Numbered from the stretch's first letter, positions 321-38,442 are shown. The stretch is 62,141 bases of DNA from an uncultured Methanosarcinales archaeon (GCA_964508495.1 CAZDUA010000031.1:1-62141), one strand, 5' to 3'. A program made the numbers and translations. The notes: generated by a model from the sequence alone, not told the origin.

Positions 321-1541
321 CTAAAAGTGGCTGAAACAGCGCTCTTCTGTGAACACCATTGCTATCTCGCTCTTATTGGCTAGCTCAATGATTGATTGGT
401 CTTCTTTTGAACCGCCTGGTTGGACGACTGCCGTGACGCCTTCTTTTGCAATTGTTTCAACATTGTCTGGCTTTGGCATGAATCCGTCGCTGGCAATGAC
501 TGCTCCTTCTAGGCCGCCTCTTGTTTGTTTGACGAATGCCACTGCTTTCTCCAAATCCCAGGATTGGGCTTGTACGAGCTTATCTGTTGCTTTTTGGTAT
601 GCTTTGTCGATGGCTTGTTCTATTGCGCCAACTCTTTCCTGCTGTCCTGTTCCTATTGCAATTGCTGCGCCGTCTTTTGCAAACACTATTCCGTTGCTTC
701 TTGTGTTCGCGCAGATGTACCATGCGAAGAGCATGTCTTCTGCTTCTTGTGGTGTTGGCATCCTGTAGCTTGTGGCTACAATTTTTTTGTCTTTGTCCAA
801 TGCTATTGCGGGCTTGAACTGGTTTGGTAATCTGAATTTTGTTGTATATGGCTCTGACATGACAAACGTACCGTCTGCAAGGACTCTTAGTTCTGGGTGT
901 GCTTTGTCTTTTTCATCTGAGAAAGCAGGCACTTGTGCTAATAATTCTTTGTCGTATGCTAGAACTCGTACGTCAACGTTTCTGCCATATTTCTTTCCGC
1001 TTTTTAGTATTTCTAATGCGTCTGGCTCTATTTTTGGTGCTAATATGACTTCGAAGAAATCTGTTGTCATTATTCTGTCAGCGAGTTCTTTGTCTACTGG
1101 ACCGTTAAATACCATTGTTCCGCCGAAGTTTGAGCGCGCATCGCACCAGTATGCTCTTTCAAATGCATCTGCGAGCGTTTTTCCTTTTGCTATTCCTGAT
1201 GGGTTTATGTGTTTGTGGAACGTGCAGACTGGCTGTGTGTCTCCTAGTAGTCTGATGATGCGGAGTGCTCTGTCCATGTCTTCAAGGTTTGTTTGTGACA
1301 GGCCTCCTTTGCCCGTTTTTAGTTCGACGAGCTTGCTCATTACTGTTGGAACGCCTTCTATCTCGTAGTGTGCTGCTGGTTGGTGTGGGTTTGTTCCGTA
1401 GCGCAAGTCCTCTCTTTTTTGATAGGTGACGGTTTCAAATCGTGATGTTTCGTTTGGAGTTTTTGGCTTGAATTCAAGCATCATTGTTATCCTGTCTGCG
1501 AATTCGCCGACATTTCTTGTCCTGTACATTTCTTTGCCCAT
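321..1541 (-). CDS. purH: AICAR transformylase (PurH family, AICARFT domain only; no N-terminal IMP cyclohydrolase domain)
   Basis: LRYGTNPHQPAA, KHINPSG, DARSNFGG, EVILAP, SNGIV, GTGQQERV, ASDGF, VVQPGGSKED, ERCFSH motifs. GAGGTGA RBS at 1548-1554. Confidence 0.85.
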   Translation of the reverse strand: MGKEMYRTRNVGEFADRITMMLEFKPKTPNETSRFETVTYQKREDLRYGTNPHQPAAHYEIEGVPTVMSKLVELKTGKGGLSQTNLEDMDRALRIIRLLGDTQPVCTFHKHINPSGIAKGKTLADAFERAYWCDARSNFGGTMVFNGPVDKELADRIMTTDFFEVILAPKIEPDALEILKSGKKYGRNVDVRVLAYDKELLAQVPAFSDEKDKAHPELRVLADGTFVMSEPYTTKFRLPNQFKPAIALDKDKKIVATSYRMPTPQEAEDMLFAWYICANTRSNGIVFAKDGAAIAIGTGQQERVGAIEQAIDKAYQKATDKLVQAQSWDLEKAVAFVKQTRGGLEGAVIASDGFMPKPDNVETIAKEGVTAVVQPGGSKEDQSIIELANKSEIAMVFTEERCFSHF

Positions 1542-2279: not shown

Positions 2280-2801
2280 CTACTTATAATATTGTGGGTT
2301 TAAGAACTTTGCTAGTGCGTACGTGACTCCGCGCTCGAATGCTTCTGTTCTTTTTACCATGTTGCCTGTGAGCATTCCTACTGTTCCTTCTTTTTGTTTG
2401 ATGTTGTCGTGTCCGAATATCGCGTCTGTTGCTGGTCCGAGTTCTTTTCCTTGGCGTACTTCTTTTGCGAGTTTTTCTGGAAGCATTAAGCATCCGCAGC
2501 TCGCTATTCCTTTGTTTCCGTGCTTGTCAACGACTGCCGCCCAGCCATCAAGGAACATTCCGTGTTCTGAGTCGAATGTGCTGCCTTCAAGTCCGAAGCC
2601 AAAATCTGCGTTTGTTTGTTTTTGTGCTAGTATTGCCCTGTTTAACGCTCCTTCTATGGCGTCTTTTTGTGTGTTCGGCTGTATTGACGTGCCATGGCTG
2701 ACTTCTATTCCTACAACTTCAGCGTCAGGCCATACTTTTTTTACTACATTCTCTACTGCTGCTATTTTTACCGGGTTTTTGCTTCCTACTGCGATTTTCA
2801 T
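2280..2801 (-). CDS. yjjX: Inosine/xanthosine triphosphatase (non-canonical purine NTP phosphatase)
   Basis: MKIAVGSKNPVKIAAV, GALNRA, FGLEG, GKELG, KQKEGTVGMLT, RTEAF motifs. Confidence 0.9.
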   Translation of the reverse strand: MKIAVGSKNPVKIAAVENVVKKVWPDAEVVGIEVSHGTSIQPNTQKDAIEGALNRAILAQKQTNADFGFGLEGSTFDSEHGMFLDGWAAVVDKHGNKGIASCGCLMLPEKLAKEVRQGKELGPATDAIFGHDNIKQKEGTVGMLTGNMVKRTEAFERGVTYALAKFLNPQYYK

Positions 2802-2881: not shown

Positions 2882-3994
2882 ATGTATTTGATTCGTGGGT
2901 TGGATGATGGGGAAGTGGCTGGTGTTATCCAGCAGTTGGGTTCCAGTGATGGGCTAGTCCATGCTTTGTGCAAGGTGCGTTTTCCTTGGATATCGCGTGT
3001 TATGCCTGAGAATTTAGTTAGGAGGATGTTGGAAAAGGATTTTAGGAATATTGGTTCTGTTAAGGAGTTTCAGGGAGTGCTTTGCAAGTATGTCAGGTAT
3101 TTGATGAAATCTACTTCAGATGGTCTTTCTTGTTCTGGCTTGGAGAATATAGCTAAGAATGGAGTTGGCAAGATTTTTGTTTCCAATCATCGTGATATTG
3201 TTTTGGATTCTGTTCTTGTCGGGTATGAGTTGTATACTTCTGGTCATGGCTTTACGCGTGCTGGTTTTGGCAGCAATTTGGCGAGTATTCCTGAGGTTTC
3301 CGCTATTTTGCGCTTGTCTGGCGGTTTTATTGTTCCGCGTGGCGTTAAGGGCCGTGCATTGTATAATGCAGTTCATGAAGTTTCTTCTTATATTGATGAT
3401 GTCGTTAAGCAGGGTGGATTGGTTTGGATTGCCCAGAGAGAAGGCCGCGCCAAGGATGGCATAGATGAAACCAATCCTGCTGTGCTTAAGACTTTGCACT
3501 TGTCTTCCAAGGATTCTTTGTCTTTAGGCGAATTTGTTGGTTCAAGGGAGATTATTCCTGTGGCTGTGTCTTACGAGTGGGATCCTTGTGATATGATGAA
3601 GTCCAAAGAAGTGCAGGTTACTAAACAGACTGGCAAGTATACTAAGGTGAAGGGCGAGGATGAGGCTGCCATGCTTGCTGGCGTGCTTGGCAGAAAAGGC
3701 AGGGTTCATGTTGCTTTTGGAAGTCCTTTAAGCGGTGATTTTGCTGGTTACGAAGCCGTTGCCGGCGCGATTGATAAGCAGATTCATGATTTGTATCACG
3801 TGTGGCCTTCAAACGTTGCCGCTGTTTTCATGCTTAGAGGTGAGAGAATTGATGGCTGTGAAGAGCTTGAAAAGCGCATACAGGGCATGCCTGCTGAGTC
3901 CAAGGAGTGTTTGCTGAGGCTTTATGCTAATCCTGTTCAGAGTAAGTTTACCCACCAACAAGAGAAAGTAGTTTCTCAACTTCCGTCCAGTTGA
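2882..3994 (+). CDS. Glycerol-3-phosphate/lysophospholipid acyltransferase (LPLAT superfamily, bacterial type)
   Basis: FVSNHRDIVLDS (catalytic HxxxxD), WIAQREGRAKDG, IIPVAVSYEWDPCD, GRKGRVHVAFG. Confidence 0.8.
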   Translation: MYLIRGLDDGEVAGVIQQLGSSDGLVHALCKVRFPWISRVMPENLVRRMLEKDFRNIGSVKEFQGVLCKYVRYLMKSTSDGLSCSGLENIAKNGVGKIFVSNHRDIVLDSVLVGYELYTSGHGFTRAGFGSNLASIPEVSAILRLSGGFIVPRGVKGRALYNAVHEVSSYIDDVVKQGGLVWIAQREGRAKDGIDETNPAVLKTLHLSSKDSLSLGEFVGSREIIPVAVSYEWDPCDMMKSKEVQVTKQTGKYTKVKGEDEAAMLAGVLGRKGRVHVAFGSPLSGDFAGYEAVAGAIDKQIHDLYHVWPSNVAAVFMLRGERIDGCEELEKRIQGMPAESKECLLRLYANPVQSKFTHQQEKVVSQLPSS

Positions 3995-4532
3995 TTGATT
4001 TCCAGATTGTTTCTACATAGTCTGCTCGTTTCAAGTTGTAATCAATCATGAACGCGTGTTCGAACACGTCTATTACTAGTATTGGCGCGCAGGTTGCTAA
4101 ATGGCCGACGTCGTGTTCGTTTATCCAGCAGTTGAATAGTCTGCCTGTTGATATGTCGTAGTATGTTACTGCCCAGCCTATTCCTCTCATCGTGCAGGTT
4201 GCCTTTAGGTCTTTTTCGTAGTTTTCCCAGCTTCCGAATTGTTCTGTTGCTTTTTTCTTGAATTTGTCGCTTGCTTTTGGGTCTTTTGAGAGTATTCTGA
4301 AGAATACTTCATGCAGTCTCATGCCGTTGAACTCCCATCCAAAGCGTCTTTTTAGTTCTGCAAATTCCGGGTTTGCTTGTTTTCCTTCTTTTAGCATTGC
4401 TGAAACAGTATCAACGAGCTTGTTTGTATTGTTAACATAGCCCTGATAGAGTGTGAAATGATTCTTCATTAACTGGTCTGATAGTCCTTTGATTCCTAGT
4501 AGATGGTCGAAGTTTTTTGGTTCGTATGGCAT
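3948..4532 (-). CDS. sod: Fe/Mn superoxide dismutase family protein
   Basis: Metal ligands in HFTLYQGY, FNGMRLHE and DVFEHAF; GIGWA motif. Confidence 0.85.
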   Translation of the reverse strand: MPYEPKNFDHLLGIKGLSDQLMKNHFTLYQGYVNNTNKLVDTVSAMLKEGKQANPEFAELKRRFGWEFNGMRLHEVFFRILSKDPKASDKFKKKATEQFGSWENYEKDLKATCTMRGIGWAVTYYDISTGRLFNCWINEHDVGHLATCAPILVIDVFEHAFMIDYNLKRADYVETIWKSINWTEVEKLLSLVGG

Positions 4533-4566
4533 TTTATCACCTTAGAATACGGGATTGTTTGTTCTT

Positions 4567-4899
4567 TTAATATATTTCTATTGCTACGGTCTTTCCTTTG
4601 GTTGAGCAGAGCATTACTGATTGTCCTTTTTCTAGGTTTCTTGCGGTGTGTGGTGTTTCTTTTTCCATGTCTATTCTGTCGCCGGGTTTTAGCACGAAGC
4701 TTCTTCCTTCTGCACAGAATTCAACTTTGCCGGTAACAAGTATTCTTGTTTCGTCATATTTGTGCTGGTGTACGTTCATGAACTCGTTTTTTTCCATGAC
4801 TTCCAGGTGCGGTTTCATCCCTTCTTTTACCATCAAAGCTCTAAGTTCATCTTCTGTTGGCACTCTTGGCTTGTTCCAGGGTAAGTAACGGACGTTCAT
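4567..4899 (-). CDS. Cupin domain protein
   Basis: HQHKYDE...GKVEF...LKPGDRIDMEKETPHTARN cupin motifs 1 and 2. Confidence 0.8.
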   Translation of the reverse strand: MNVRYLPWNKPRVPTEDELRALMVKEGMKPHLEVMEKNEFMNVHQHKYDETRILVTGKVEFCAEGRSFVLKPGDRIDMEKETPHTARNLEKGQSVMLCSTKGKTVAIEIY

Positions 4900-4937
4900 T
4901 AGCCATTGGCTATTTCACTAGCTTATTAAAATTTTTG

Positions 4938-5894
4938 TTAAAACAGCCGTTTCTTGGCAAAAGTGCCAGGTATTAATCTGTAAGCTAGTCTTCCATCTGC
5001 GTAAAGCATTGGAATTCCTATTAGCGCCGTACAAGAAAGACAGGCTAACTTTGGCACATCTTTTGTCGTTCTTAGTGAAACATCGTGCTGCAGTTTTTCA
5101 AACTCTGGAGGGTAGAATATTCGGTTCAGGTAGCATCTTATCAGATCTCCCTTCCCATCTTTTTGGTATTTTATGACACTGCTGTTGCACTTTGTGCAGG
5201 ATATATCTAGAAGGTGTGCTTCCCCTCCTCTTGCAGTTCTGTATTTATCGTTTTTTAGCTTAAATTCTTTTGGGTCCATTTTCTCATCTCCGTTTTTTGT
5301 TGAAACTGGTTCAACTTTTTCATCTATGCAGGTAGAAAGTAAGAAATGCAGTCTGTGTACATTTTTTCTTACCTCTCCTTCATTTTGAAAGAACAAATTA
5401 ATTGAAGGCTGATATTCGCCTTTCTGAACTTTGTTCAGCTCTTGAACTGCAGCCGCATACCTTTTGCCATCGCCGTCTCTATCGTCTGTGCTAAGTCTCG
5501 ATTTCAGTGTTTGCAAATCAGGTGGCAGGACATAAACAGAATACTTGCGTACCTCTGGAAGTGATTCATTTAAGCAATCAATCCTGTCTATTGGCCAGTC
5601 GAGCAGTGGCTTCCGGTAACTTGAAAGAATTCGGTGTATTTCCTCTCTGGTCGGTCCATAAAAATTACCGTGAACTTCATTTGGACACACGATGACGCCG
5701 CTATTTGCGAGTTCAGAGAAACATTCTCTATCAACGTGTATTTTATCAGTTTCATTTTCTCTTAATTCTCTGGTCGTATATGGTCGCGGGTAATCATAAC
5801 TTAACGGGAATAGAGTGCGCAGTTCTCTGATAAGGGTTGTTTTTCCTGTTCCAGATGGTCCCAGTAGCAGGACTAGTGTTTTGTGTGTTTTCAT
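4938..5894 (-). CDS. Guanylate kinase-like P-loop domain fused to a C-terminal 4-Cys (putative zinc-binding) domain
   Basis: GPSGTGKTT P-loop, YTTRELRENE, HGNFYG, PPDLQTLKSRL. C-terminal SCTKC...YQKDG...RCYLNRI...ACLSC. Confidence 0.7.
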   Translation of the reverse strand: MKTHKTLVLLLGPSGTGKTTLIRELRTLFPLSYDYPRPYTTRELRENETDKIHVDRECFSELANSGVIVCPNEVHGNFYGPTREEIHRILSSYRKPLLDWPIDRIDCLNESLPEVRKYSVYVLPPDLQTLKSRLSTDDRDGDGKRYAAAVQELNKVQKGEYQPSINLFFQNEGEVRKNVHRLHFLLSTCIDEKVEPVSTKNGDEKMDPKEFKLKNDKYRTARGGEAHLLDISCTKCNSSVIKYQKDGKGDLIRCYLNRIFYPPEFEKLQHDVSLRTTKDVPKLACLSCTALIGIPMLYADGRLAYRLIPGTFAKKRLF

Positions 5895-6724
5895 TTTCTT
5901 TTTACTTTTGAGATGGAATAATGCAATCCTCGAATTGATTGTTCAACTTTGTCTCTCCAGTCTTTGTCCGTCGAATTATATGGGTAAAGTATTGCTCTTG
6001 AAGAATTTACAATCACGCCGCTGTCTTTTTGGTTGAAAAGGCATCGTATTTTTGTCAAATCGCCTCCTTGTGCGCCAACACCCGCATACAATATGGGCAT
6101 ATCGCTAGGTATTCTTTCCCTTATCCTCTCGAGCGAGGCATGTTCGGATAGGACTGGAATCATGTTTCGATTTTTGTTCCAATCACTTACTACCCGGTCC
6201 AGAATGTATGACCAAAGTGGCTCTTCTCGTTTTTTTGTTTCAGATTTTACCGGAATATCTTGTATTATGTTTGCTCCGGGATTGCTGGTTCTTACTAGCA
6301 CGGCAATGCCTCTGTCAGAGTAATTTGAAAACGCGTGGAAGACTTCTTGGCCCATGTAAGGATTTATGACGATTCCATCAGCATTGCAATTTTGGAAAAT
6401 GTTGCGCAAATATGCATGCATGGTATTCTCAATGTCGCCAATCTTGCAGTCAACTATTGCTGGCGCATCAGGAGCTGACTTGTGAATTGTACTGATTGCA
6501 TCTTTTAGCAGTTTTGTTCCATCGTAAAGATCAAAAAAAGCTTTTTGCAGCTTATATGCGGATGCGTATTTTGATGTTATTTCAATTATTTCAGTTAAAA
6601 ACCTTGAAACCGCTTCGAATGGAGGGAGATTTTTGTATTCATTCGGAATTTTACTTAAATCCGGATCTAAACCTACGCAGATGCTGGAATTAGGCTCATT
6701 TAAGAGTTTTAAGCAGTCTCTCAT
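5891..6724 (-). CDS. pyrF: Orotidine-5'-phosphate decarboxylase (type 2 subfamily)
   Basis: ICVGLDPD, AYKLQKAFF, DCKIGDIENT (DxKxxD), RTSNPGA, GVGAQGG, VNSSRAILY. Confidence 0.85.
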   Translation of the reverse strand: MRDCLKLLNEPNSSICVGLDPDLSKIPNEYKNLPPFEAVSRFLTEIIEITSKYASAYKLQKAFFDLYDGTKLLKDAISTIHKSAPDAPAIVDCKIGDIENTMHAYLRNIFQNCNADGIVINPYMGQEVFHAFSNYSDRGIAVLVRTSNPGANIIQDIPVKSETKKREEPLWSYILDRVVSDWNKNRNMIPVLSEHASLERIRERIPSDMPILYAGVGAQGGDLTKIRCLFNQKDSGVIVNSSRAILYPYNSTDKDWRDKVEQSIRGLHYSISKVKRK

Positions 6725-7521
6725 TTCAAACCCTCATAATCGTGGCCTAAAACGAGCTTTTTAGCTTCAAGATGCCTGGCCGTCCGTTCGGTTGGCGGTA
6801 CTGCTATGGCTTCGTTTTTAACGTCAAAACCGTTTCTAGTTAATGCTTCCAACTTTTTCGGATTATTTGTGCCGAGTAGTAGCTTGCTCTTCACGTCTAA
6901 AAACTTCAGAATTGCAACAGCGCCATCATATGTTCTGCAATCAATGTCATTGGCAGTGTTGTTTTTTTCTAACAGAGTGAAAGCCTCAACAGTGTTTACA
7001 CCTATACGTTCCTGTAAATAGAGTGTGGCGAGTTTGAAGTCTGTGCCTTTTCCCCTTCCATCTTGGTTTGGAATGTATATTATCAGTCCTTGCTCTTTTT
7101 CAGCAAGTCTTTTCATGGCCAAGTCTAATTGTTCACGACATTCGCAGGTTTTATCATGAAACAATTGCCCCGTCGTACATCCAGAATCTATTCTAAGAAA
7201 GACGCTTTTTTCTTGTTTGAATGCGGGACGCATCAGTGTGCTGTCAAGGTCCGATTTTGCTATTGCGTAATACGTACCCCATTCATCGTTAACTTTGAAT
7301 ACCATCTGGTAGAATTTGCCGTATGGTGTGTCAAGAGGTCCACAGCCTTTTTTGGTTACATCATATGAATCGTTTCCAATAAGTATTGCTCTTGTACACT
7401 GTTTTTTAGAATTTTCAGCTTCTGATATTATGTCAAGTAGCTCGGTCTGATTTATTTTATACTTTTGAGAAAGTTCCTTAGTAAAATCAAAATAGTCGAA
7501 TTCTCCGTTTTGAGTTGCCAT
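6721..7521 (-). CDS. GTP cyclohydrolase II (RibA)-like protein, divergent subfamily
   Basis: LRIDSGCTTGQLFHDKTCEC (three Zn Cys), QDGRG, NTVEA, DCRTY, TNNPKKL, KKLVLGH. Confidence 0.8.
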   Translation of the reverse strand: MATQNGEFDYFDFTKELSQKYKINQTELLDIISEAENSKKQCTRAILIGNDSYDVTKKGCGPLDTPYGKFYQMVFKVNDEWGTYYAIAKSDLDSTLMRPAFKQEKSVFLRIDSGCTTGQLFHDKTCECREQLDLAMKRLAEKEQGLIIYIPNQDGRGKGTDFKLATLYLQERIGVNTVEAFTLLEKNNTANDIDCRTYDGAVAILKFLDVKSKLLLGTNNPKKLEALTRNGFDVKNEAIAVPPTERTARHLEAKKLVLGHDYEGLK

Positions 7522-7522
7522 T

Positions 7523-7954
7523 TTAAATGTTGAACGTTTCCCTCATCAAATCACCGATTATCGTGTACTTCTGTACCTGCAAAACGCCTGGCAATTGATG
7601 CATTTCTTCCGCAAAATCCTCTATTTCCTTGAGGTCTTTTCCTATAAATTCTGCCAGAAAGTCGTATCCTGAGTTGATTTTGTGCAGGTTGTTTATTGCC
7701 ATGTGCTGCTCCAAGTATTCTCGCACTCTGTCTCTTCCTGTTGGTGTTGTTTTGATTGCAAAGCATGCTCTTGTGTATCCGAGTTTTGCGAAATCAAGCA
7801 GTGCTGTGCTTTTGTGGATGATGTTGCCGTGATACCGTTTGACTTTGTCGTGTACTGTTGATGCTGGCATGTTGAGCTCTCTTGCGAGAGCAAGTAGTGA
7901 GGTTCTTGCGTTCTTTCTGAGCGCAGAGAGCAGTCGAAATTCGTTTTCATCCAC
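7523..7954 (-). CDS. Lrp/AsnC family transcriptional regulator (true start probably GTG at 7954, not 8023)
   Basis: LLSALRKNARTSLLALARELNMPASTVHDKV HTH; ALLDFAKLGY; SGYDFLAE. GGGGTGA RBS just upstream of GTG 7954. Confidence 0.8.
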   Translation of the reverse strand: MDENEFRLLSALRKNARTSLLALARELNMPASTVHDKVKRYHGNIIHKSTALLDFAKLGYTRACFAIKTTPTGRDRVREYLEQHMAINNLHKINSGYDFLAEFIGKDLKEIEDFAEEMHQLPGVLQVQKYTIIGDLMRETFNI

Positions 7955-7959
7955 ATGAT

Positions 7960-8196
7960 TCACCCCATCTGTTCGAGGGCTGCCTTTTTGGCTTCGCCTT
8001 CGATTTTTGTTTTGCTTCCGCACCGTCCGCAGAGTACGAACAGCTCATTTGTTAGTGGAATTATTGGTATGAAGTAGAGCGTGAACCACTCTGTTAGTTT
8101 GACGAGGCCGTGCATCGTTTTTCGCTTGCAGTTCTTGCACGGCTTGTTGGCTTCACCAAGCACTTTCGGTTTGCTCTTGTAGCCGAAGAGTATCAT
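7960..8196 (-). CDS. Zinc-ribbon domain protein
   Basis: CKNC...WFTLYFIPIIP...CGRC. Confidence 0.75.
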   Translation of the reverse strand: MILFGYKSKPKVLGEANKPCKNCKRKTMHGLVKLTEWFTLYFIPIIPLTNELFVLCGRCGSKTKIEGEAKKAALEQMG

Positions 8197-8378
8197 GACC
8201 TGCCTCCGAATATCATCACGAGAATTCCTACAATAGCAAGCGCTCCTGCCACGTATGACTGCGATTCTCCGAGTAGGTTTAGTAGTTTGAACTGGAGGCC
8301 GAAGAATGGAAGTACAAATCCTCCTGCTCCAAAGAAGAACATCATTGCGCCGAGTCCTCTTGCTGACATTTTACGCAC
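8193..8378 (-). CDS. Small membrane protein (2 TM)
   Basis: Two hydrophobic segments; overlaps both neighbours in operon fashion; GAGGTG RBS. Confidence 0.55.
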   Translation of the reverse strand: MRKMSARGLGAMMFFFGAGGFVLPFFGLQFKLLNLLGESQSYVAGALAIVGILVMIFGGRS

Positions 8379-8622
8379 CTCCTATGAATAAGTACATTAT
8401 CGAAATGTAGAGGAAGTACAATCCACCTGCAACGCATGCTGCTCCGATTAATCTTGCCATGGCCGGATGATGTTGTGTGCCGTCGTTTTTCTCCAGTTTG
8501 CCTCTCACTAATGCTATTATTCCGCCTATTGCGAATAGTAATCCGATTATTATTCCGCCAACAGCTACTACTCCTGGTGGCAGCGTTCTTAGCAACGCTT
8601 TGAGTCCCACATATTGTCCCAT
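8371..8622 (-). CDS. Small membrane protein (2 TM)
   Basis: Two hydrophobic segments; first gene of the minus-strand run. Confidence 0.5.
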   Translation of the reverse strand: MGQYVGLKALLRTLPPGVVAVGGIIIGLLFAIGGIIALVRGKLEKNDGTQHHPAMARLIGAACVAGGLYFLYISIMYLFIGGA

Positions 8623-8775: not shown

Positions 8776-9732
8776 ATGAAGCGTAAAATAAACAGGGTTG
8801 GAACGTCAACTTTGACTGTTTCACTGCCGAGCAAGTGGGCCCAGAAATATGCCTTGAAGCCGGGACAAGAAGTTGAAGTTTTTGAAGAGGGCAGAATTGT
8901 GCACATTTCCGCAGGCGCAAATGTCAGGAAGGGCAATAAGACGATCATCAATATTGATGAATTCAATGCTCTTATGGTTAACAGGCTTCTTAACGAACTT
9001 TACAATTCAGGTGTTGACGAGATCATTATTAACTTCTCAAAGCCCACGGTTCCTAATTACAAAACTGGAGAATCTGTTGAAGTAGAGAAGTACATTAATA
9101 GGCTTCTTCCCAGATTTATAGGTCTTGAAATAGTATCTCAAACGCCTGGCAAGATTATATTGCAAAACCTGCTTCCGGTAGAAAAAACAGAAAAGCTGGA
9201 TGTAATTCAAAAGCGTACTTATTTTCTTATCAAGGAATTCTTAAGCGAATTTATCAAGAACTTGAACAATTTCAGTAGTTTTTATCCAAAAGTCTATGAT
9301 TACCATGATGCCGTGGATAGGTTCATTAATTATTATCTGAGGTTAATCTCTGCATCAGATTTAGGCGAGCATCAAAAGGCAAGAGCGGCTACGTTTTATG
9401 AGAGAATAAAGACAGTATTGGATAAAGTTAGGCACACTAGCGAAAGGCTTTCAGAAATGAAGATGATTACTCCAAAGATAAAGTCTTATGTTGCTGAAAT
9501 CTTCAATTACTATATGTCCCAGTTTGACTTTATTTTCAAATCAGGCATAACTACAAAGGAAGTCGATGGTATCGTAAAAAAAAGATATGAACTCGTCAAT
9601 AAAATTAATCAAGAAAGGTTTAATGAGAGAGAAGCAAGAGTGATTTGGGAGTGCAGGAGCATGGTTGATACAATTGTTGAATTTCTTGATGAGTACATTC
9701 AATTGAATTCTGAGAGCTTTAGAGCTGCTTGA
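8776..9732 (+). CDS. AbrB/MazE-like DNA-binding domain + PhoU-like helical domain regulator (archaeal phosphate-uptake regulator family)
   Basis: MKRKINRVGTSTLTVSLPSKWAQKYALKPGQEV N-terminus; GLEIVSQT; helical C-terminus. ATG 8776 is a likelier start than 8755. Confidence 0.75.
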   Translation: MKRKINRVGTSTLTVSLPSKWAQKYALKPGQEVEVFEEGRIVHISAGANVRKGNKTIINIDEFNALMVNRLLNELYNSGVDEIIINFSKPTVPNYKTGESVEVEKYINRLLPRFIGLEIVSQTPGKIILQNLLPVEKTEKLDVIQKRTYFLIKEFLSEFIKNLNNFSSFYPKVYDYHDAVDRFINYYLRLISASDLGEHQKARAATFYERIKTVLDKVRHTSERLSEMKMITPKIKSYVAEIFNYYMSQFDFIFKSGITTKEVDGIVKKRYELVNKINQERFNEREARVIWECRSMVDTIVEFLDEYIQLNSESFRAA

Positions 9733-10873
9733 GTTTTTTTAAGGTTTCTTGCAGGACTTTTTTAGCGCTAATCTGACAAGGATATTCATCTCTCAAAGTA
9801 TGGCCATTTTTTAGAAAAGTTCTCAGGGAAGTAATATAGTTGATTCTTCGCGATTCATGGTCAAGAAGCCCAGTTGGCTGGCAAAGATAAGCTGCTGCTG
9901 CGAGTAATGCTTGGAACTCTCTGGCTGATTCTGGCTGGCTTCTTAAGTAATATCTTAATTTTCCTTTCTCACTTACGTACTCCTCTTTTTCCACCTGCAT
10001 GCATGCTTTTTCAAGTTCTGAAAACTTTTCAAGAAGTTCTTCTTGATATTCAATTGCTGGCTTTTTCTCATTCAGCGATTTCACTCTCTCACCGATTTTT
10101 TCTCGTCTAACTGCTTTATCTGGTGAGTTGTCAATCAGATGCTGACCCGTTAGTTGCTCATAGAGTACCAATCCAACTGACCATGCGTCATAATCATCCG
10201 CCCATTCCTTTGCTCCGAGATAGATTTCCGGAGGTCCATATGTTAGTGAGCCCCACATGCCGTCAAATTCTTGTGTTGCAAGACCAAAATCCACAAGGTA
10301 CGGTTTTGAATTTTCGCTTAAAACAATGTTCTCTGGGCGTATATCTCGGTGAAATATGGGGTTTGGAATTGTGATTCCAGAATACGCCCATTTCATCTGC
10401 AAAATTACTAAGGCGTCAAATAAGCCCTTTGCGATAGCTGGAAAATCTTTAATTTGGTGACTTAAACCCAATTTTCCATCAATTACAGTACGTAGCGATG
10501 GAACTCCAAAATGATGGCTTCTGGGGAGCAGATAAGACCATTTTGGAAGGCGCGTGAATAAAATTCCTGTATAATCTCCTTTAATTGGTACCACGTCTTC
10601 TATTTTCGCTATGTTATCATGGTCATCAAGCCAGGCGAGTATTTTTGCCTCATTTTTTGTACGCTCTACAGGGTCGAGTTTTGAATGTTCATACCCTGAA
10701 AGAGGTACATCCGGACCTAGTAAATCGTGAGGCAAGTTGACTTTCAAAAGATTTACAAGATTCACCCTTGCACGTTTTACTACGTACATCTCTGACAAGT
10801 TTCCAGAGGGAAGCTCACCTAAAACTTCCATCCCATCATGTATTACGTCCCCTGCTTGCAATATCTTACCCAT
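9719..10873 (-). CDS. Ser/Thr protein kinase (Hanks type)
   Basis: HRDIRPENIV catalytic loop, DFGL, YGPPE, DAWSVGLVLYE. Confidence 0.8.
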   Translation of the reverse strand: MGKILQAGDVIHDGMEVLGELPSGNLSEMYVVKRARVNLVNLLKVNLPHDLLGPDVPLSGYEHSKLDPVERTKNEAKILAWLDDHDNIAKIEDVVPIKGDYTGILFTRLPKWSYLLPRSHHFGVPSLRTVIDGKLGLSHQIKDFPAIAKGLFDALVILQMKWAYSGITIPNPIFHRDIRPENIVLSENSKPYLVDFGLATQEFDGMWGSLTYGPPEIYLGAKEWADDYDAWSVGLVLYEQLTGQHLIDNSPDKAVRREKIGERVKSLNEKKPAIEYQEELLEKFSELEKACMQVEKEEYVSEKGKLRYYLRSQPESAREFQALLAAAAYLCQPTGLLDHESRRINYITSLRTFLKNGHTLRDEYPCQISAKKVLQETLKKLKQL

Positions 10874-12614
10874 TTTTGCCTATATCGGTTTTTCTCAGTT
10901 CATAAGAATTTTGAAGCGTTTGAATCGTTTGTGCAACGCGATAATTGTACGGCGATTCAATATCTCGTGCATCCTTGCCGCCAAAGAATGAATTATCAAA
11001 AAAACAATTTGACATGATGAATTCGATAATCGATTGGGCGCCGTCGATAAGTGCGGCATCCTTCAAAGTGTTAAAAAAATTGTGCTGATAGAACAAATTG
11101 AGCTTATTTTTGGTTTCAGTATCGATCTTCAATTGTTCTTTCTCAAAATATTCCGCACATTCTTTTGGATTGAAATCAATTGCTTTTACAACGTTAGCAA
11201 GCGGATTTTTAATTACGCCCTCAATTCCTTCTCGTACATTGTTAAGAAGTTTTTGTTGCTGGTCAATCATGAATGTCATATACTGATCAGGTTCTTTCAC
11301 TTTATCAATCTCTTTTGATGAGAAGAATTTGTTACCAGTAAGCATTTCATAAAGTATGACTCCTAAAGACCATAAATTATCACGCGGCACAACGTCATAT
11401 GCTGTTTTGTTGCGCGATAGTTTGAGCATGCGAGGTGATGCATAATCGATAGGCCAGTGTTTCCAAATTTCTTTTGTGTCGTATATTGCATCGTTAAAAT
11501 CCGTTAGTTTTACACCGTCTTTGTCAATTCCAACATTGTGGGGTGCGAGATCGTAATGCATTATTCCACGCTCATGGCAAGCTGCCAGCGCAGTCAGCAT
11601 TTGTTCAAAGTAAAGCATTGCATCAGAAAATTTAATCCGTGATCCGCTATTCTCAAGTTTTTCTTTCAATGTTTGTTCGAAGGGTTCCATTGGCAATACG
11701 AATTTGCCTTCCATCTCAAATGGATCATAATAGGTAACTATGTTTGGGTGTCTAAGTTCTCGCAGTTTTTCGATATTTCTGACAACCGCGTCTATTGGAA
11801 CGTCCTGATTAACTATTTTAACTGCAACTTCTCCTGAATACTTGTTTTGCGCTAGATATACATCGCTGACGCGTCCACTGCCGAGCTTTCTAAGAGGATT
11901 GTAATTTGAGGGCAATTCTAATTTTGCAAGCTCGATTATTTCCTCAAGCGGCATTCTTTCTTCTTTTGCCTCCTCTTTTTTCATGTAGTTGATTATCTTT
12001 CTCAGTTTACTATTTGTTAGAATCAGATGCACCGCTTTTGCAAAGTTTGGATCAGTTTGGTATGCTGTTGTTCCGCAGAATATGGCTGTTTTCTTGATAA
12101 AGTCCAGTTTTTCAGGCAGTTTATCTTCTTGCTCGATGAATCTGGTGTAGGGCAGTTCTCTGCCTTCTGCGAAAATGAAGTCAATTGCGCTGAAAAACTC
12201 GCTTGAGACCGGTTCAGGTAATTTTTCCAAAGGTTCTTTTATTTCAGTTAATATTTCTACAAGGGTGTCAAGACAAGCATTCGATTTTTGTGCAATTTCT
12301 TCTTTTTCTTTGTCTACTTTTTCTCCATCATATTCCAGAAATTGAAGGGTATCGCTTACTGACACATATCTCGCAGCATGCATTGAAATTGTGTCCATGG
12401 CTTTTTGTTTCAGTGAAGAGCCTACATATGACTTGACAAATCTGAACGTTTTTCTATATGCCTGCTGCTCTTCTGATGGAAGGTCTGGCCTATCTTCATC
12501 TATCCACTCATGTTCTACATTACTGAAGAATTCATCCAGTCCTTTGCGGATGGCTTTCATTGCGCCTTCTATATTCTTCCTGCGTATGTCTTCCTCGCTG
12601 TCAAAGTCACCCAT
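10866..12614 (-). CDS. Ser/Thr protein kinase-like protein with N-terminal helical domain; degenerate motifs
   Basis: LGSGRVSDVY, VAVK, HPNIVTYYD, HYDLAPHNV, DFN, YASPR, LWSLGVILYE. Confidence 0.75.
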   Translation of the reverse strand: MGDFDSEEDIRRKNIEGAMKAIRKGLDEFFSNVEHEWIDEDRPDLPSEEQQAYRKTFRFVKSYVGSSLKQKAMDTISMHAARYVSVSDTLQFLEYDGEKVDKEKEEIAQKSNACLDTLVEILTEIKEPLEKLPEPVSSEFFSAIDFIFAEGRELPYTRFIEQEDKLPEKLDFIKKTAIFCGTTAYQTDPNFAKAVHLILTNSKLRKIINYMKKEEAKEERMPLEEIIELAKLELPSNYNPLRKLGSGRVSDVYLAQNKYSGEVAVKIVNQDVPIDAVVRNIEKLRELRHPNIVTYYDPFEMEGKFVLPMEPFEQTLKEKLENSGSRIKFSDAMLYFEQMLTALAACHERGIMHYDLAPHNVGIDKDGVKLTDFNDAIYDTKEIWKHWPIDYASPRMLKLSRNKTAYDVVPRDNLWSLGVILYEMLTGNKFFSSKEIDKVKEPDQYMTFMIDQQQKLLNNVREGIEGVIKNPLANVVKAIDFNPKECAEYFEKEQLKIDTETKNKLNLFYQHNFFNTLKDAALIDGAQSIIEFIMSNCFFDNSFFGGKDARDIESPYNYRVAQTIQTLQNSYELRKTDIGKNG

Positions 12615-29406: not shown

Positions 29407-32400
29407 TTAAAATGATTCCCATCTTACAAAGATGGCGTATGCAAGCAGTCCAATTATTACAACTGCAATGACTATTCCTGCTTTGACTGCTCCTGATTTT
29501 GGATCTAGTGAGACAGTGAACAGGTCTTTTAGCTTCTGGCTGAATTGTGACCATTTGCTTTCTTTGACTTCTGCTTCTACCGGAACAGTTGTTTCAGTTT
29601 GTTCTGGTTGTGGTTCTTCTACAACTGGAACTTCTGGTTGTACTTCTAGTTCTGGTACTGGTGTGAAGTTGAACATTGGCAATGGTGGTGCAACTATTGG
29701 TTGTCCGCCTGCTAGTTTTGCTTTGATTATTACTGTGCTTCTTGTAACGTCTACTATTTCCAAGTCTAGGTCTGGTATGTTATCTCTGCTCAAGTCGAAC
29801 GTTTTGTGTTCTCCTTTGTTGATTGTGTGGAATATTCCGTTTAATACCCATTCTGTTGAGCTGTTTGCGAAGTTGATTCTGCGTATTAGCATGCTTAATG
29901 GGTACAGTTTTCCGTCTCTTGTGAACTGTATTGCTTGTGCTTGGAAGACTGTTCTTTGTATTGGAACTTCTGTTAGTGCGATTCTGATTTGTCCGCTGCT
30001 TCCGCCGCCTCCGCCGCCGCCTCCACCGCCTCCGCCGCCACCTGTTGATGGGGTTGAGATTGTGAATGGTGTTGTTTTCGAGCTTGTAAAGCCGAATGAG
30101 TCTGTTACTGTTAGTGTTGCTGAGTAGCTTCCTGCTGCGAACGTTTTTACTACTGATGTGTTCGTGCTGTTTGTTGAGTCGCTGAACGTCCAGAAGAACG
30201 TCAATGAATCATTCAATGGTCCTGGGATGTTCGCGTCTGTTGATGTGCTTGTGAATGTTATGCTGAATCCTGGTACTAGGCTTCCTGTTATTGAGAAACT
30301 TGCTATTGGTGGCACTGGGACTACAGCGCTTATGTTTGCTGCTCCGCTTGCTGATGCGTTGTATGTGAATGTTCCGTTTGGTGTTGGTACGCTTATCGTG
30401 CCTGCTGATATTACCATGTTTGCTATGATGCAGTCTGATACTGTTGCGCTTCCGAACGTGCTGTTGGTTACTGAACAGTTTGACATTGTTACGTTGTTCA
30501 GGTTGCTATTTGTTATGTTTGAGCTTGTTATCGTGCTGTATGTTACATTGCTTGCAATTATGCTGCTTCCGCCTGTTACTGTGCTTCCGGTTAGGTTGCT
30601 TGGGTCTACAAAGCTATCTGTGAACGTGCAGTTTGTTGCTGTTATGTTCTTGACTGTGCTGTTTGTGATTACACAGTTGGTCAATATTGAGTTTGTTATG
30701 TTTGAGATTGTTGCTGTTACGTTTTTCAGCGTGTTGTTGTTTCCAATGTTGCTTAATAGCGTGCTTGCGTTAATCGTGCTTGATGTCATTATTGTGTTGT
30801 TGATTGTGCTTGTTCCTATGAGTGTGCTTCCGTTCAATATGTTTTGTACGAAGTAGCTCAAGTCTGAGTTTGCAGCCGCGCTTTGGTTGTTGCATGCTAC
30901 GAATACGCTGTTGCTTCCTAGTACTAATCCGCTAATCACTGCGCTGTGCGCTATTCCGCCTGTAGTGCTGAAGCTGTTGTTCATGCTTCCTTGTGCTACG
31001 TCTGTGAATGCCCACTTGCAGGTTGTTACTCCTGTTGTGTTCAGCGCCATTGTGAAGAAGCTGAAGTTCAAGGCTGTTCCGTTTGGCGGGGTTATGTTTA
31101 CTTGTGTTACTATTGGCGTGATTGTGATGAATCTTGTCAAGTTTCCTGCTGATACGTTTGCGTTTCCTGGGAATGATGCAATTATTGGGAATACTCCTGT
31201 GCTTGCAAAGCTTGTTACGTGTGTCAATGGTGAGCTTGTGCTTGTGTTGACAAGTGTTCCGTTGACGTACAAGTCTACTGCTCCGCCTGCTGGGTTTGTG
31301 ACGTTTGCAATTATTGTTACTGTGTCATTTACTTGTGCTGAGGTGTTGCCTGATGCACCGTTTAATGTCAAAGTCAGGGCTGCAATTCCTGGTGTTACTG
31401 TGTAATTGCTTGATATTGTGCTGTTCAAGTTTCCTGATGTGTCATTTGCGTACCATTTGTATGTGTGGTTGCCTACGGTCAATGATGTAAGGTTGACTTG
31501 GTACGTGCTTGTGTTGCCTAGCTGTGATGCTGTGCTGTTTGTCGCGTTGTCGAGTTCAAGTGTTACAGTTCCTACTGCAACGTTGTCTGTTACGCTGACG
31601 TTGAATGTGTATAATGATGTGAACATTGCTGGCGATACTGGGCTTACAGATTGTGCGCCAAAGGTTGGTGCTACTGTGTCAAGTACGTTGACAAAATTTG
31701 TTACATTGATTCCTGTGTAGTTTGTGTTGCCTGCAAAGCTTGCTGTTATGTTGAATGGTCCTGATGCCGGGAATGTTTGGTTGATTGTGAATGGTGATGC
31801 TCCGCTTCCTACTGAAACGCCATTTCTAAGTATTGAAATTGTTCCTGTGGTGTTTGTCAGGTTTGCTGATATTGGCACAGTGCTTCCTTGTGCTACTGTT
31901 ACGTTTCCTGCTGTTCCGTTTAGCAACAAGTCCATTGAGCTATTTGCTTTTAGTATTGTGAATACTGAAGCGTTGCTCATGTTTGTGTTGTTTGCGCCGT
32001 CTTTTGCAAACCATTTGAATGTGTAGTTTCCTGCTGCTTTGTCTGAAACAGTTGTTGTGTACAAAGTTCCTGCTTGTGAAACGTTTGTGTAGTTGATTGC
32101 GCCGAACTCAAAGGTTACGTTTGTTATGTTTCCGTTGTCTGTCCAGTTGATGCTGAATGTGTAGTTTGCTCCTGGGAAGTACACGCTTGGGTTTGTTGGT
32201 ATGATTTGGCCGTCTGGTGTTGGGGCTGTGCTGTCGCTTATTGTTAGCTTGAATGTGCCGTTTGTACATGCGCTGAAATTGTCGCATGCTTGTAATGTTA
32301 TGTTGAATGCGCCGTTTGTCATTGGCGTGAAGCTTATTAGGCCTGTTGAGTTGTCTATTCCGAATCCTGAAAGTCCTGATGCGTTGATTACGCTGAAGTT

Positions 32401-36747: not shown

Positions 36748-38442
36748 TTAGAAGAAGGTATTGTACAATTCTTTGACCTTATTGCCTACATTTATCCAGA
36801 ATTCCTGGCCTGGCTTGGTTAGAACGCTTCCGGCAGCTATACCGCTTGCTGCTACAGCAGCTGCTCCCCATGCCATTAATTTTTGTTTGCTGACTCCCAT
36901 AAATGGTGCGTGCCTGAATGACTCTTCAATGTAGCTTTCAGCTGTAAATGTTGGCTCATCTTTTACTTTGCGTATGTCATTTGATGCTTTAATTTGAGCG
37001 TATACGCGTTTTGGCTTTTTGCCCTGTTGTATAAGTTTAAGGTCTTCTACTGCGTCTTCTGGCTTCTGGTATCTATAATTAGGGTCTTTTTGCATTAGTG
37101 CTGCTGTGACTAGCACAAGGTATTTGTTTACTTCTGGAGCTTCTGGTTTGTGTTCTCTGTGTTTTGAGTTGTACATTCTGTCTGATGGGTCGTTTCTTCT
37201 GTCATCCGGCATGTTGTGGTTTGGGCTTCTTCCTGTTAGATAGAAGTATAATGTAAGTCCCAGTGAGCACAAGTCGCTTCTCGTGTCGGATTCTGTTAAT
37301 GAGTGTGCCTGTTCAGGTGCTATGTAATCTGGTGTTCCCATGACTGTTTGTTCGGTTGTTGCAAAGCTTTTGTCAAGGTATACTGTGTCCGCTTTTGCTT
37401 GGCCGTTTTTCTTGTTGTATTTCATCAATCCCCAGTCTATGAAGTTTGCTTCTGTGGCTGGTATTGTTTTGTCCCAAGTCCAGAATAGGAATCTTTGGTG
37501 GACTGTTCTTCGTGATCTTTGAAGCATGATGTTTTGTGGCTTGATGTCTCTGTGCACTACGCCTATTTCTGAAAAGTCAGCAATTTCTTCTGCAAGTGCA
37601 GTTACCACTCTTACTTTATCGTCGAGGGACATTTCCCGGGGGGCATCGTACCAATTCAACGGATCTTTTATCATCTTGGCCACAGTGTAGAGTTTGTTGC
37701 CTTGTGTTTTTCCGTGCATGAGCATCGTAACGGAGTTCTCAGTATCTCTGCCCGCCATATTGAGCTCTCTTTTTGCTCTTGCTTCCAATTGTTTTCTTGC
37801 TGCCGCGTCTCCGTTTGGGCTGACTATTTTTACTGCAACTCTGGCCTTCTCTCCATCTTTGTCTTTTCTGACTAGTCCTTTGATTTTGCGGAGTTCTGCT
37901 CTTCCGGTTTCACTTAGTTGTTTGAGTGTTTGATCTTGCAATACTTCCATTGCATCTTTTATGAATGTGCGCGGGATTCGTCTGACTGTTTTGTATGCTT
38001 CTTCTGGTATTTCATCGTTTGAAAATTCTGCCAGTCCCCATGCTGCGCGTGGCGCGAGTAGTCTTAGCCATCCTTCTTTGTCCAGTTTTTCGAAATCTAT
38101 TGTTCCTTCTGATACGAGTGCTTGGCCTCCTGCTCCCAGAAGCCTATATGATAAGGTGAGCCAGGGTAGGTGGCCGCCAAATTCAGCGTCATACATTCTG
38201 CCAGTCTGGTTGGTTATTGCATCAATTGTTTCATATGCTGTTAGAACTGTGTGTTTTGCTGATACTATTAGCCTGTCTTCTGGTGGCGGAAGTGAGAGTG
38301 ATGTGAAAGATGCCTGTCTTTCTTTGTACAGTCTGTCTATCGCTTCATCGACAAACTTCTCGCCCTGTTGTTCTTTATAGCCAGCTAGAAGTTCATCTAG
38401 CTGCTTGTTCATTTCATCTGTAGAGCGCTGTTTCTGTATCAT
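36748..38442 (-). CDS. Ser/Thr protein kinase (PknB-like) with C-terminal hydrophobic anchor
   Basis: LGAGGQA, VAVK, HRDIKPQNI, DWG, GTPDYIAPEQ, DLCSLG, RYQ; terminal WGAAAVAASGIAAGSV. Confidence 0.9.
   Translation of the reverse strand: MIQKQRSTDEMNKQLDELLAGYKEQQGEKFVDEAIDRLYKERQASFTSLSLPPPEDRLIVSAKHTVLTAYETIDAITNQTGRMYDAEFGGHLPWLTLSYRLLGAGGQALVSEGTIDFEKLDKEGWLRLLAPRAAWGLAEFSNDEIPEEAYKTVRRIPRTFIKDAMEVLQDQTLKQLSETGRAELRKIKGLVRKDKDGEKARVAVKIVSPNGDAAARKQLEARAKRELNMAGRDTENSVTMLMHGKTQGNKLYTVAKMIKDPLNWYDAPREMSLDDKVRVVTALAEEIADFSEIGVVHRDIKPQNIMLQRSRRTVHQRFLFWTWDKTIPATEANFIDWGLMKYNKKNGQAKADTVYLDKSFATTEQTVMGTPDYIAPEQAHSLTESDTRSDLCSLGLTLYFYLTGRSPNHNMPDDRRNDPSDRMYNSKHREHKPEAPEVNKYLVLVTAALMQKDPNYRYQKPEDAVEDLKLIQQGKKPKRVYAQIKASNDIRKVKDEPTFTAESYIEESFRHAPFMGVSKQKLMAWGAAAVAASGIAAGSVLTKPGQEFWINVGNKVKELYNTFF

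Follow-up and report, generated by a model that had tools for sequence, protein, structure and literature searches.

A recurrent four-domain gene module combining a GTP-cyclohydrolase-II-like enzyme, OMP decarboxylase, a nucleotide kinase and a zinc protein

The locus and the recurrence of its genes

The DNA analyzed here, called the window below, is a stretch of 62,141 nucleotides from an uncultured Methanosarcinales archaeon (GCA_964508495.1, CAZDUA010000031.1:1-62141). Our subject is a group of four consecutive genes at positions 4938-7954, all on the minus strand, which an open reading frame (ORF) listing confirmed. From the upstream end they encode (i) an AsnC/Lrp-family transcription regulator (7523-7954; 143 amino acids (aa) from a GTG at 7954; Pfam HTH_24, HTH_AsnC-type and AsnC_trans_reg), (ii) a GTP-cyclohydrolase-II-like (GCH-II-like) zinc hydrolase (6721-7521; 266 aa; PF00925, E 4.9e-30), (iii) a type 2 orotidine 5'-monophosphate (OMP) decarboxylase (OMPdc; 5891-6724; 277 aa; PF00215 and TIGR02127 pyrF_sub2), and (iv) a fusion protein (4938-5894; 318 aa; PF00625, E 3.5e-14). 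In the last of these, a guanylate-kinase-fold (Gmk-like) nucleoside monophosphate (NMP) kinase domain (5289-5894; aa 1-202) is followed by a C-terminal zinc domain (4938-5288; aa 203-318 plus the stop) of ~115 residues with two CxxC pairs. The genes are packed as tightly as an earlier reading of the sequence alone had described: at the GCH/OMPdc and OMPdc/Gmk-like junctions alike, the stop and start codons overlap by 4 nt as ATGA, and the TAA of the regulator is a single base away from the ATG of the GCH-like gene. The same reading stated that no riboflavin (rib) or other pyrimidine (pyr) genes lie in the window; none occurs among the ~25 window ORFs scanned with Pfam, and the statement stands for the part so covered.

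A scan of one genome per species yielded 46 loci, and the final set comprises 56 non-redundant loci with flanks of up to 10 kb, in all of which ORFs were called and searched with hidden Markov models built from the first examples. Homologs of the cyclohydrolase form a distinct family of ~260 aa. In the first seven neighborhoods of such homologs, an NMP kinase adjoined the gene in every case, OMPdc lay between the two in most, and most also had an unannotated ORF of ~110 aa, a homolog of the zinc domain at the C terminus of the window kinase. Across the full set, 34 of the 56 loci carry GCH, OMPdc, Gmk-like and zinc (Zn) domains together, seven carry Zn, GCH and a Cmk-like kinase, and two carry GCH, Gmk-like and Zn; most of the other 13 loci are truncated at contig ends or come from a divergent subgroup with long GCH proteins. 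The order of the genes is invariant, namely (Zn) GCH OMPdc kinase (Zn). OMPdc, present in about three quarters of the loci, is frequent but not obligatory, and the kinase is variable, being Cmk-like or Adk-like in place of Gmk-like in some variants. Four fusion pairings were found, and they cover every neighboring pair: OMPdc::Gmk (9), GCH::OMPdc (7), Gmk::Zn (6, the form in the window) and Zn::GCH (1). A fusion of NTPase_1 with Zn exists besides.

The hosts are mostly bacteria of the candidate phyla radiation (CPR) and DPANN archaea, with a few Gammaproteobacteria, Gemmatimonadetes, Mucilaginibacter, Zixibacteria, Babeliales and Holosporales, and the module proteins have relatives in Nanobdellota, Woesearchaeota, Micrarchaeota and Patescibacteria. 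This patchy distribution, which crosses the domains of life, suggests horizontal spread. Because identical domains, order and fusions recur in dozens of unrelated genomes, the arrangement is far beyond chance. All-against-all clustering of the flanking ORFs yielded only NTPase_1, present in some of the loci, and thus no conserved fifth gene; nor does any family of rib or pyr genes recur beside the module in other loci. Since the flanking genes are not conserved, the module is self-contained. Conservation of the three enzyme genes as a cluster in CPR and DPANN genomes, which the sequence-only reading had proposed as its test, is borne out by the 34 loci with all four domains in fixed order and by the fusions. 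Far from being unlinked elsewhere, the genes are linked and variously fused in CPR, DPANN and beyond.

These data show that the three enzymes and the zinc domain of the window are one copy of a dedicated, probably horizontally spread, four-domain nucleotide-processing module, and not a chance neighborhood of ribA, pyrF and gmk. A search of a literature library found no published description of this gene combination. At its invariant core the module is predicted to have a zinc hydrolase that opens a ring and depends on a nucleoside triphosphate (NTP), an NMP kinase with altered specificity, and the zinc protein.

The subgroup with long GCH proteins (L050, L051, L054 and L061; also L052 and L053) was observed in Holosporales, Verrucomicrobiales and other Gram-negative bacteria. 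Its cyclohydrolases are ~410-435 aa long and have an unannotated N-terminal domain of ~200 aa and an insert after the GRG loop. They are linked either to NTPase_1 (THEP1-family) proteins, ROK::NTPase_1 fusions and Adk-like kinases, or to OMPdc, Gmk and Zn.

Component proteins

The GCH-II-like protein of the window scores below the equivalog thresholds for RibA (TIGR00505, 104.4 bits vs a cut-off of 205.85; NF001591, 102 vs 148). It retains the zinc motif CX2GX7CXC, with C115, C126 and C128 corresponding to C54, C65 and C67 of Escherichia coli RibA, and two arginines, R110 and R196, that correspond to R49 and R128. The R128 equivalent is the arginine nucleophile for pyrophosphate release; in the mechanism of GCH II this arginine attacks the alpha-phosphate, and the chemistry ends at the monophosphate level (PMC10366380). 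Throughout the family, the positions of E. coli Y105, E53, D58 and H51 are occupied by L, G, Q and D, respectively. Tyr105 aligns without gaps to Leu167 in the family motif FKLATLYLQ, and the neighboring Tyr is not conserved. The proteins also have an N-terminal helical extension of ~60 aa and an insert before the DxR motif.

Foldseek matched the AlphaFold2 (AF2) model of the protein (pLDDT 94) to RibA 2bz0 (E 1e-14, TMt 0.86, 28% identity) and to UTP cyclohydrolase 7eev, as well as 7ej3 (E 5e-7, TMq 0.54). The family profile scored 93-100 bits against RibA but 15 bits (E 0.12) against 7eev/7ej3. The latter two structures are of the UTP cyclohydrolase URC1/UrcA of uracil catabolism (Zhang et al., ACS Catal 2021, cited in PMC12507026); since a UTP cyclohydrolase is thus a solved member, the GCH II superfamily can act on a pyrimidine NTP. 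Identification of the module enzyme as RibA was rejected, given the absence of Tyr105, a score under the curated cut-off and the lack of rib genes in the neighborhoods scanned, and so was identification as UrcA, where the similarity is structural only and membership fails at the level of sequence. Judged by these features, the family is a third class in the GCH II superfamily after RibA and UTP cyclohydrolase. Its active-site columns do not differ between modules of the OMPdc type and those of the Cmk type. Residues of the cyclohydrolase that vary together with the presence or absence of OMPdc, which would have hinted at a carboxylated substrate, were looked for without success.

Two loci carry, beside the module, a second GCH II paralog that is more similar to RibA: L014, from a Nanoarchaeota metagenome-assembled genome (13557-14159, minus strand), and L029, from an Acidiferrales metagenome-assembled genome (4662-5417, minus strand). 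This paralog has an RVHSxC motif and an insert of ~15 aa and keeps the Tyr105 equivalent. Since these two loci carry both types of GCH, the types are not redundant.

The OMPdc exceeds the curated cut-off of TIGR02127 pyrF_sub2 (158 bits vs 110.6). Its catalytic residues and base and phosphate contacts (D20, K58, D92, K94, D97, Q219 and R243) are kept in 32-34 of 34 module copies, and its best PDB match is the OMPDC domain of Leishmania UMPS (E 1.8e-28). We predict from these residues that it is a bona fide PyrF-type enzyme, catalytically intact, in an unprecedented genetic and physical association. Three OMPdc relatives with 44-48% identity, picked only for their long contigs, all lie in a GCH-OMPdc-Gmk context, so that the OMPdc belongs to a clade peculiar to the module. 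A linked pyrE was sought in the 56 loci; none adjoins the module, and the search gave only one weak phosphoribosyltransferase match.

The Gmk-like domain scores 73 bits against TIGR03263, the cut-off of which is 160. It has the P-loop GPSGTGKT, and the phosphate-binding and lid residues of yeast Guk1 are retained: R38, R41, Y78 and R146 in every one of the 35 module copies and R131 in 32 of them. The other positions compared are changed, S34 to P and Y50 to K in 33 of 35 copies each, E69 to V, T, L, A or I in 30 of 35 (Glu is absent from the five commonest residues), S80 to T, P or L, and D100 to P in all 35. This kinase thus looks catalytically competent, with its guanine contacts lost, and identification as Gmk was rejected, since both the contacts and the curated cut-off fail. 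In one variant of the module, OMPdc and Gmk are replaced by Cmk-like kinases, which fall below the cmk cut-off and in which the cytosine contacts of E. coli Cmk (S36, R110 and D132) are altered, D132 being Asn in five of seven copies; the long-GCH variants have Adk-like kinases and NTPase_1 (THEP1-family) proteins. Kinases of the Gmk, Cmk and Adk folds appear, as far as their residues indicate, to have been convergently re-specialized toward one common substrate.

The sequence-only reading described the last gene of the locus as a Gmk-like/zinc fusion. The fusion exists, but the zinc part turns out to be an independent, conserved fourth component, which usually stands alone and often occurs in two copies. 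The family is ~110 aa long (stand-alone ORFs, 100-130 aa) and comprises 148 clusters at 90% identity, none of which has a name or a Pfam domain, and 643 clusters at 50% identity. Neither Pfam nor NCBIfam has a model for it, and its Pfam matches to beta-tent families lie below the cut-offs. Invariant features are two CxxC pairs (domain residues 31-34 and 83-86), YQKDG and several Arg, and there is an RGG and Arg-rich signature. Two paralogous clades are recognized, a primary copy of the window type and an optional second copy. The zinc protein strictly co-occurs with the module, and it is found fused to Gmk-like, NTPase_1 and GCH proteins.

The AF2 model of the zinc domain (pLDDT 93) is all-beta, and its Foldseek matches (cereblon isoform 4, the C-terminal domain (CTD) of DRH-3/RIG-I, the Yippee domain of Mis18, and MsrB2) are weak (E 0.07-0.7 for these and 0.07-1 for beta-tent matches as a whole, TM 0.35-0.5); a fold search in BFVD gave no meaningful match for this domain. 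The modeled domain looks weakly beta-tent-like. It is rich in Arg and Lys, and its fusion partners include the cyclohydrolase and two kinds of P-loop enzyme; most likely it acts as a partner that binds a nucleotide or a phosphate and thereby recognizes the substrate.

The regulator has an N-terminal winged helix-turn-helix and a C-terminal AsnC-type ligand-binding domain, with all Pfam scores above the cut-offs (PF13412, 34 bits; PF13404, 31 bits; PF01037, 27.9 bits). A longer ORF, reaching to 8023, is possible and would overlap the upstream gene, which ends at 7960. The GTG at 7954 was taken as the start because it avoids this overlap and because the ortholog in L001, the closest relative of the window locus, has an equivalent GTG start. 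The sequence-only reading had counted the regulator as a component of the operon; it adjoins the module only in the window and in L001, and is the predicted local regulator of the window operon, outside the conserved module.

Working model and alternatives

The reading that we favor, though only tentatively, is a ring-opening route for uridine nucleotides that resembles the URC pathway and has its own feeder enzymes. OMPdc, the only component with an unambiguous substrate, would make UMP; the re-specialized Gmk-like kinase (Cmk-like in variants) would convert it to the diphosphate, and a housekeeping nucleoside diphosphate (NDP) kinase would yield the triphosphate. The GCH-II-like enzyme would then expel pyrophosphate via Arg196 and open the base ring with the water bound to the zinc of the three cysteines. 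Loss of the Tyr105 equivalent is associated with a halt after ring opening, with the formyl group retained, as in the formyl-retaining GCH II paralog of Streptomyces coelicolor, which has Met for Tyr, and in archaeal GTP cyclohydrolase III. Because the Tyr of RibA and UTP cyclohydrolase is missing here, the reaction probably stops after the first hydrolysis, and the product would be a ring-opened nucleoside monophosphate. We favor uridine because UMP is the product of OMPdc, the kinases have lost their guanine and cytosine contacts, the superfamily includes an enzyme that opens UTP, and the cyclohydrolase active site is the same without OMPdc. This last point also suggests that OMPdc is a feeder rather than an obligatory handler of the cyclohydrolase product. 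The resemblance of the zinc domain, weak as it is, to cereblon isoform 4, which binds uridine and imides, and to the RIG-I/DRH-3 CTD, which binds 5'-triphosphates, also speaks for this route.

Several points weigh against this route, whose substrate is inferred. A reversed order of reactions (GCH, then OMPdc, then kinase) would agree no less well with the GCH::OMPdc fusions and with the collinearity of the genes. The sequence of the cyclohydrolase is far nearer to that of RibA than to that of UTP cyclohydrolase, and the chemistry of the enzyme may differ from that of both known enzymes, since UTP cyclohydrolase keeps Tyr105, Glu53 and Asp58. The Adk-like kinases of the long-GCH variants do not point to uridine, and the beta-tent assignment of the zinc domain is weak, as the Foldseek values given above indicate. 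Finally, about 93% of Patescibacteriota have no de novo nucleotide synthesis (bioRxiv 10.64898/2026.06.21.733656). In such hosts neither this synthesis nor a linked pyrE would supply OMP, which weakens the case for OMPdc as a feeder.

In the reversed order, which we regard as possible but doubtful, the GCH-II-like enzyme would act on an NTP (GTP or another) to give a ring-opened or rearranged NMP, on which an OMPdc-like step and then the kinase would act to produce a non-canonical NDP or NTP, namely a signal, an antiviral or toxic analog, or a cofactor precursor. The invariant order GCH-OMPdc-kinase favors it, since three of the four fusion types (GCH::OMPdc, OMPdc::Gmk and Gmk::Zn) would join consecutive steps. 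So does the product of GCH II, which is a monophosphate, the level taken by OMPdc and NMP kinases (PMC10366380). All three kinase families lack canonical base contacts, as expected for a non-canonical NMP, and house-cleaning NTPases occur near the module (8 loci have NTPase_1 and 5 have NUDIX, while others have Maf, MazG or NTPase_I-T). A lone OMPdc without de novo pyrimidine synthesis would also be less puzzling if the module itself generated the substrate of OMPdc. However, we found no hydrolytic opening of a common NTP that gives a 6-carboxy-pyrimidine-type substrate for a canonical OMPdc, and the modules without OMPdc have the same cyclohydrolase active-site columns as those with it. The routes considered from GTP, XTP and 8-oxo-GTP, through intermediates resembling carboxyaminoimidazole ribonucleotide, through carbamates, or through expansion of imidazole to pyrimidine, were rejected, as none yields a 6-carboxy-pyrimidine by simple hydrolysis. 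Modification of RNA 5' ends, suggested by analogy with the RIG-I CTD, was also rejected, because OMPdc does not fit.

Taken more broadly, the module may be a new pathway in which an enzyme of the GCH-II clade opens or rearranges the base of an NTP, OMPdc and the kinase produce a non-canonical NDP or NTP, and the zinc protein is a specificity or carrier subunit; or it may supply uridine nucleotides independently of PyrE. We give this limited credence; the chance that the chemistry of the module is new is likewise modest, though real. If the first version were true, episymbiotic CPR and DPANN cells might use the nucleotide as a signal, as a cofactor precursor or as a weapon; if the PyrE-independent version were true, the module would provide uridine nucleotides to organisms without de novo pyrimidine synthesis.

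It is unlikely that the module is an anti-phage or conflict system, induced by infection, that depletes a nucleotide pool or makes a poisonous nucleotide, with the kinase and OMPdc as supply enzymes in the manner of CMPK2 or other kinases for viperins. Such a role would accord with the patchy, cross-domain distribution and its suggestion of horizontal transfer, and with the typical pairing of nucleotide-modifying defense enzymes with NMP kinases; kinases beside viperins are discussed in bioRxiv 10.1101/2023.09.13.557418. Several neighborhoods, mobile or defense-like in content, would suit it as well, with TrwB, a relaxase, Peptidase_M78 and Nmad2 in L009, Bro-N in L004, PIN, NTP_transf_2 and an Apyc1-like lactamase in L002, and ParE in L006. 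Against it, PADLOC-DB 2.0 contained no specific match for the four proteins (only weak, generic P-loop and HTH matches, E > 1e-3), and PHROGs matched only the kinase, with generic kinase/ATPase families. Collections of viruses are nearly empty of the module, which was present in 2-3 of 2.9 million IMG/VR contigs, while the 50,697 phage records of INPHARED gave canonical ribA only and no match to the zinc domain; on these grounds an association with phages was rejected. Moreover, no defense gene recurs among the flanking genes, and the window copy lies among housekeeping genes under a metabolic-type AsnC regulator.

The Zn-GCH-Cmk copy of L009 (a contig of GCA_037975565.1, 1189-11532) sits within what looks like a conjugative or mobile element; the TrwB there is a TrwB-like coupling protein, the relaxase is a Replic_Relax relaxase, and Nmad2 is a 'nucleotide modification associated' domain protein. 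The only clear copy classified as viral, L056 (IMGVR_UViG_3300033143_004977, 4201-6506), consists of GCH-Zn-Cmk followed by an RlaP nucleotidyltransferase, of the Pol-beta family in the RNA-repair pathway.

That the locus merely brings together a riboflavin RibA, the PyrF and Gmk of the cell, and an unrelated zinc-ribbon protein is very improbable. All three enzymes do match standard Pfam families, OMPdc passes the pyrF_sub2 cut-off, and the window has purine biosynthesis (PurH), so that pyrimidine synthesis is possible. The comparative data largely refute such a housekeeping co-location: the RibA and Gmk scores are far under the equivalog cut-offs, Tyr105 and the guanine contacts are lost family-wide, all neighboring pairs are fused in many lineages, and the kinase family is interchangeable. 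The strict co-occurrence of the zinc protein with the module and its fusion to it, the lack of ribD/H/E among the window ORFs scanned and of recurring rib/pyr families elsewhere, and the separate Tyr-bearing RibA-like paralogs of L014 and L029 point the same way. The linkage, the fusions, the sub-threshold GCH and Gmk scores and the lost canonical residues support the earlier proposal of an undescribed operon whose three activities lie outside any one known pathway. None of the three functions suggested with that proposal (a modified nucleotide, salvage of damaged purines, defense) is specifically favored by the data.

Sanitation of oxidized or deaminated purine nucleotides (8-oxo-GTP, XTP and ITP) is scarcely credible: E. 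coli RibA has been reported to hydrolyze 8-oxo-GTP to the monophosphate, and a cupin, an Fe/Mn superoxide dismutase (SOD) and an NTPase_I-T protein (ITP/XTPase family) follow the module in the window and in L001, but these neighbors are not conserved beyond that closest relative, re-phosphorylation of a monophosphate by the kinase is the opposite of what is needed, and OMPdc would have no role.

Surroundings of the module and relation to known systems

Among the neighbors just named, the cupin_2 gene (4567-4899, minus strand) starts 38 nt past the stop of the kinase::Zn gene and is followed by the Fe/Mn SOD gene (3948-4532, minus strand). Cupin and SOD after the module are common to the window and L001 and occur in no other locus; the two genes may be co-transcribed with the module. 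Also near the module are PurH (AICARFT/IMPCHase; 321-1541, minus strand) and NTPase_I-T (ITP/XTP pyrophosphatase family; 2280-2801, minus strand). In L001, NTPase_I-T comes directly after SOD, and PurE-like and PurC genes lie farther on. Upstream of the regulator, again on the minus strand, are a 78-aa Zn_ribbon_15 protein (7960-8196) and two small hydrophobic ORFs (8193-8378 and 8371-8622), which may form a small membrane-protein operon, as suggested by their overlapping stops and starts.

The content of the window looks archaeal, with a DPANN affiliation probable; it includes DNA polymerase of family B, Lhr, PurH, DnaK and several Ser/Thr kinases. The genes for eukaryotic-type Ser/Thr protein kinases number at least four in 62 kb (9719-12614, 36748-38442 and 44568-47015), an unusually high density for an archaeal genome of small size. 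At 29407-35130 (minus strand) lies a very large ORF, of 1907 aa, which is followed by ORFs of 517 and 564 aa. The AT skew of the plus strand is strongly negative (about -0.3 to -0.45) over most of the window, consistent with mostly minus-strand genes having purine-rich coding strands. Rfam and tRNA scans of the window gave no matches.

CPR bacteria and DPANN archaea account for much of the diversity of microbes; most are unable to synthesize nucleotides and appear to live on host nucleic acids. A conserved and fused four-component nucleotide module implies chemistry that has been overlooked in current metabolic reconstructions. In addition, annotation pipelines mislabel its genes as ribA, pyrF and gmk, which can lend CPR and DPANN reconstructions a false capacity for riboflavin, pyrimidines or GMP. 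Ring opening at the nucleotide level by the GCH II superfamily is already known, whereas the zinc protein family, ~110 aa long and with more than 600 sequence clusters but no database model, is genuinely new. All four proteins are small and soluble-looking, and thus amenable to in vitro work.

The module enzyme shares with RibA (PDB 2BZ0, 4RL4) the fold, the CX2GX7CXC site, the Arg nucleophile and the QxGRxxG and TNNPxK loops. It differs in lacking Tyr105, which contacts the zinc water by a hydrogen bond in RibA, together with Glu53, Asp58 and His51, and in having the extension and the insert. In the flanking ORFs of the loci it is never beside ribD/H/E and always beside an NMP kinase and the zinc protein. 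The formyl-retaining GTP cyclohydrolases feed the synthesis of riboflavin or F420 and are not known to be associated with OMPdc, a kinase or a zinc protein; the module enzyme differs from them in being changed at Glu53 and Asp58 too. The bifunctional UMP synthase, a fusion of orotate phosphoribosyltransferase (OPRT) with OMPdc, resembles the module in that a type 2 OMPdc domain is fused to the enzyme of a neighboring step, but in the module the fusion partner is the GCH-II-like hydrolase or the Gmk-like kinase and never OPRT.

The zinc family has two CxxC pairs ~50 residues apart, which may bind one zinc and pin two beta-sheets as in the beta-tent proteins (CULT, the CTD of RIG-I/DRH-3, Yippee/Mis18 and MsrB). 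Members of the beta-tent group bind uridine and cyclic imides (cereblon isoform 4) or RNA 5'-triphosphates (the RIG-I/DRH-3 CTD); unlike them, the zinc family lacks the Trp cage of CULT and the catalytic Cys of MsrB. Viperin with CMPK2, and the prokaryotic pairs of viperin and kinase, likewise couple an NTP-transforming enzyme to an NMP kinase of varying family. The effector of the module, however, is a zinc hydrolase and not a radical-SAM enzyme, the base contacts of its kinase are lost, OMPdc and the zinc protein are added, and there is no defense-island context.

UTP cyclohydrolase (URC1/UrcA) is, like the module enzyme, a member of the GCH II superfamily, and it opens a pyrimidine ring at the NTP level. 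UrcA, however, has about 420-425 aa, with a large N-terminal domain and RVHDEC...CTCR...KEGR motifs, and keeps Tyr105, Glu53 and Asp58, whereas the window protein has 266 aa. URC1 and URC6 degrade uracil via nucleotides (PMC7530994), and the logic of that pathway, in which UMP is made, phosphorylated and ring-opened, is the one proposed here for the module. URC has uracil phosphoribosyltransferase (URC6) and URC4, and no OMPdc, dedicated Gmk/Cmk-like kinase or zinc protein. Thus, among known systems, viperin with its kinase is nearest to the module in gene pairing, and the URC pathway is nearest in logic, the module being set apart from the latter by its feeder enzymes, its cyclohydrolase clade and its fourth component.

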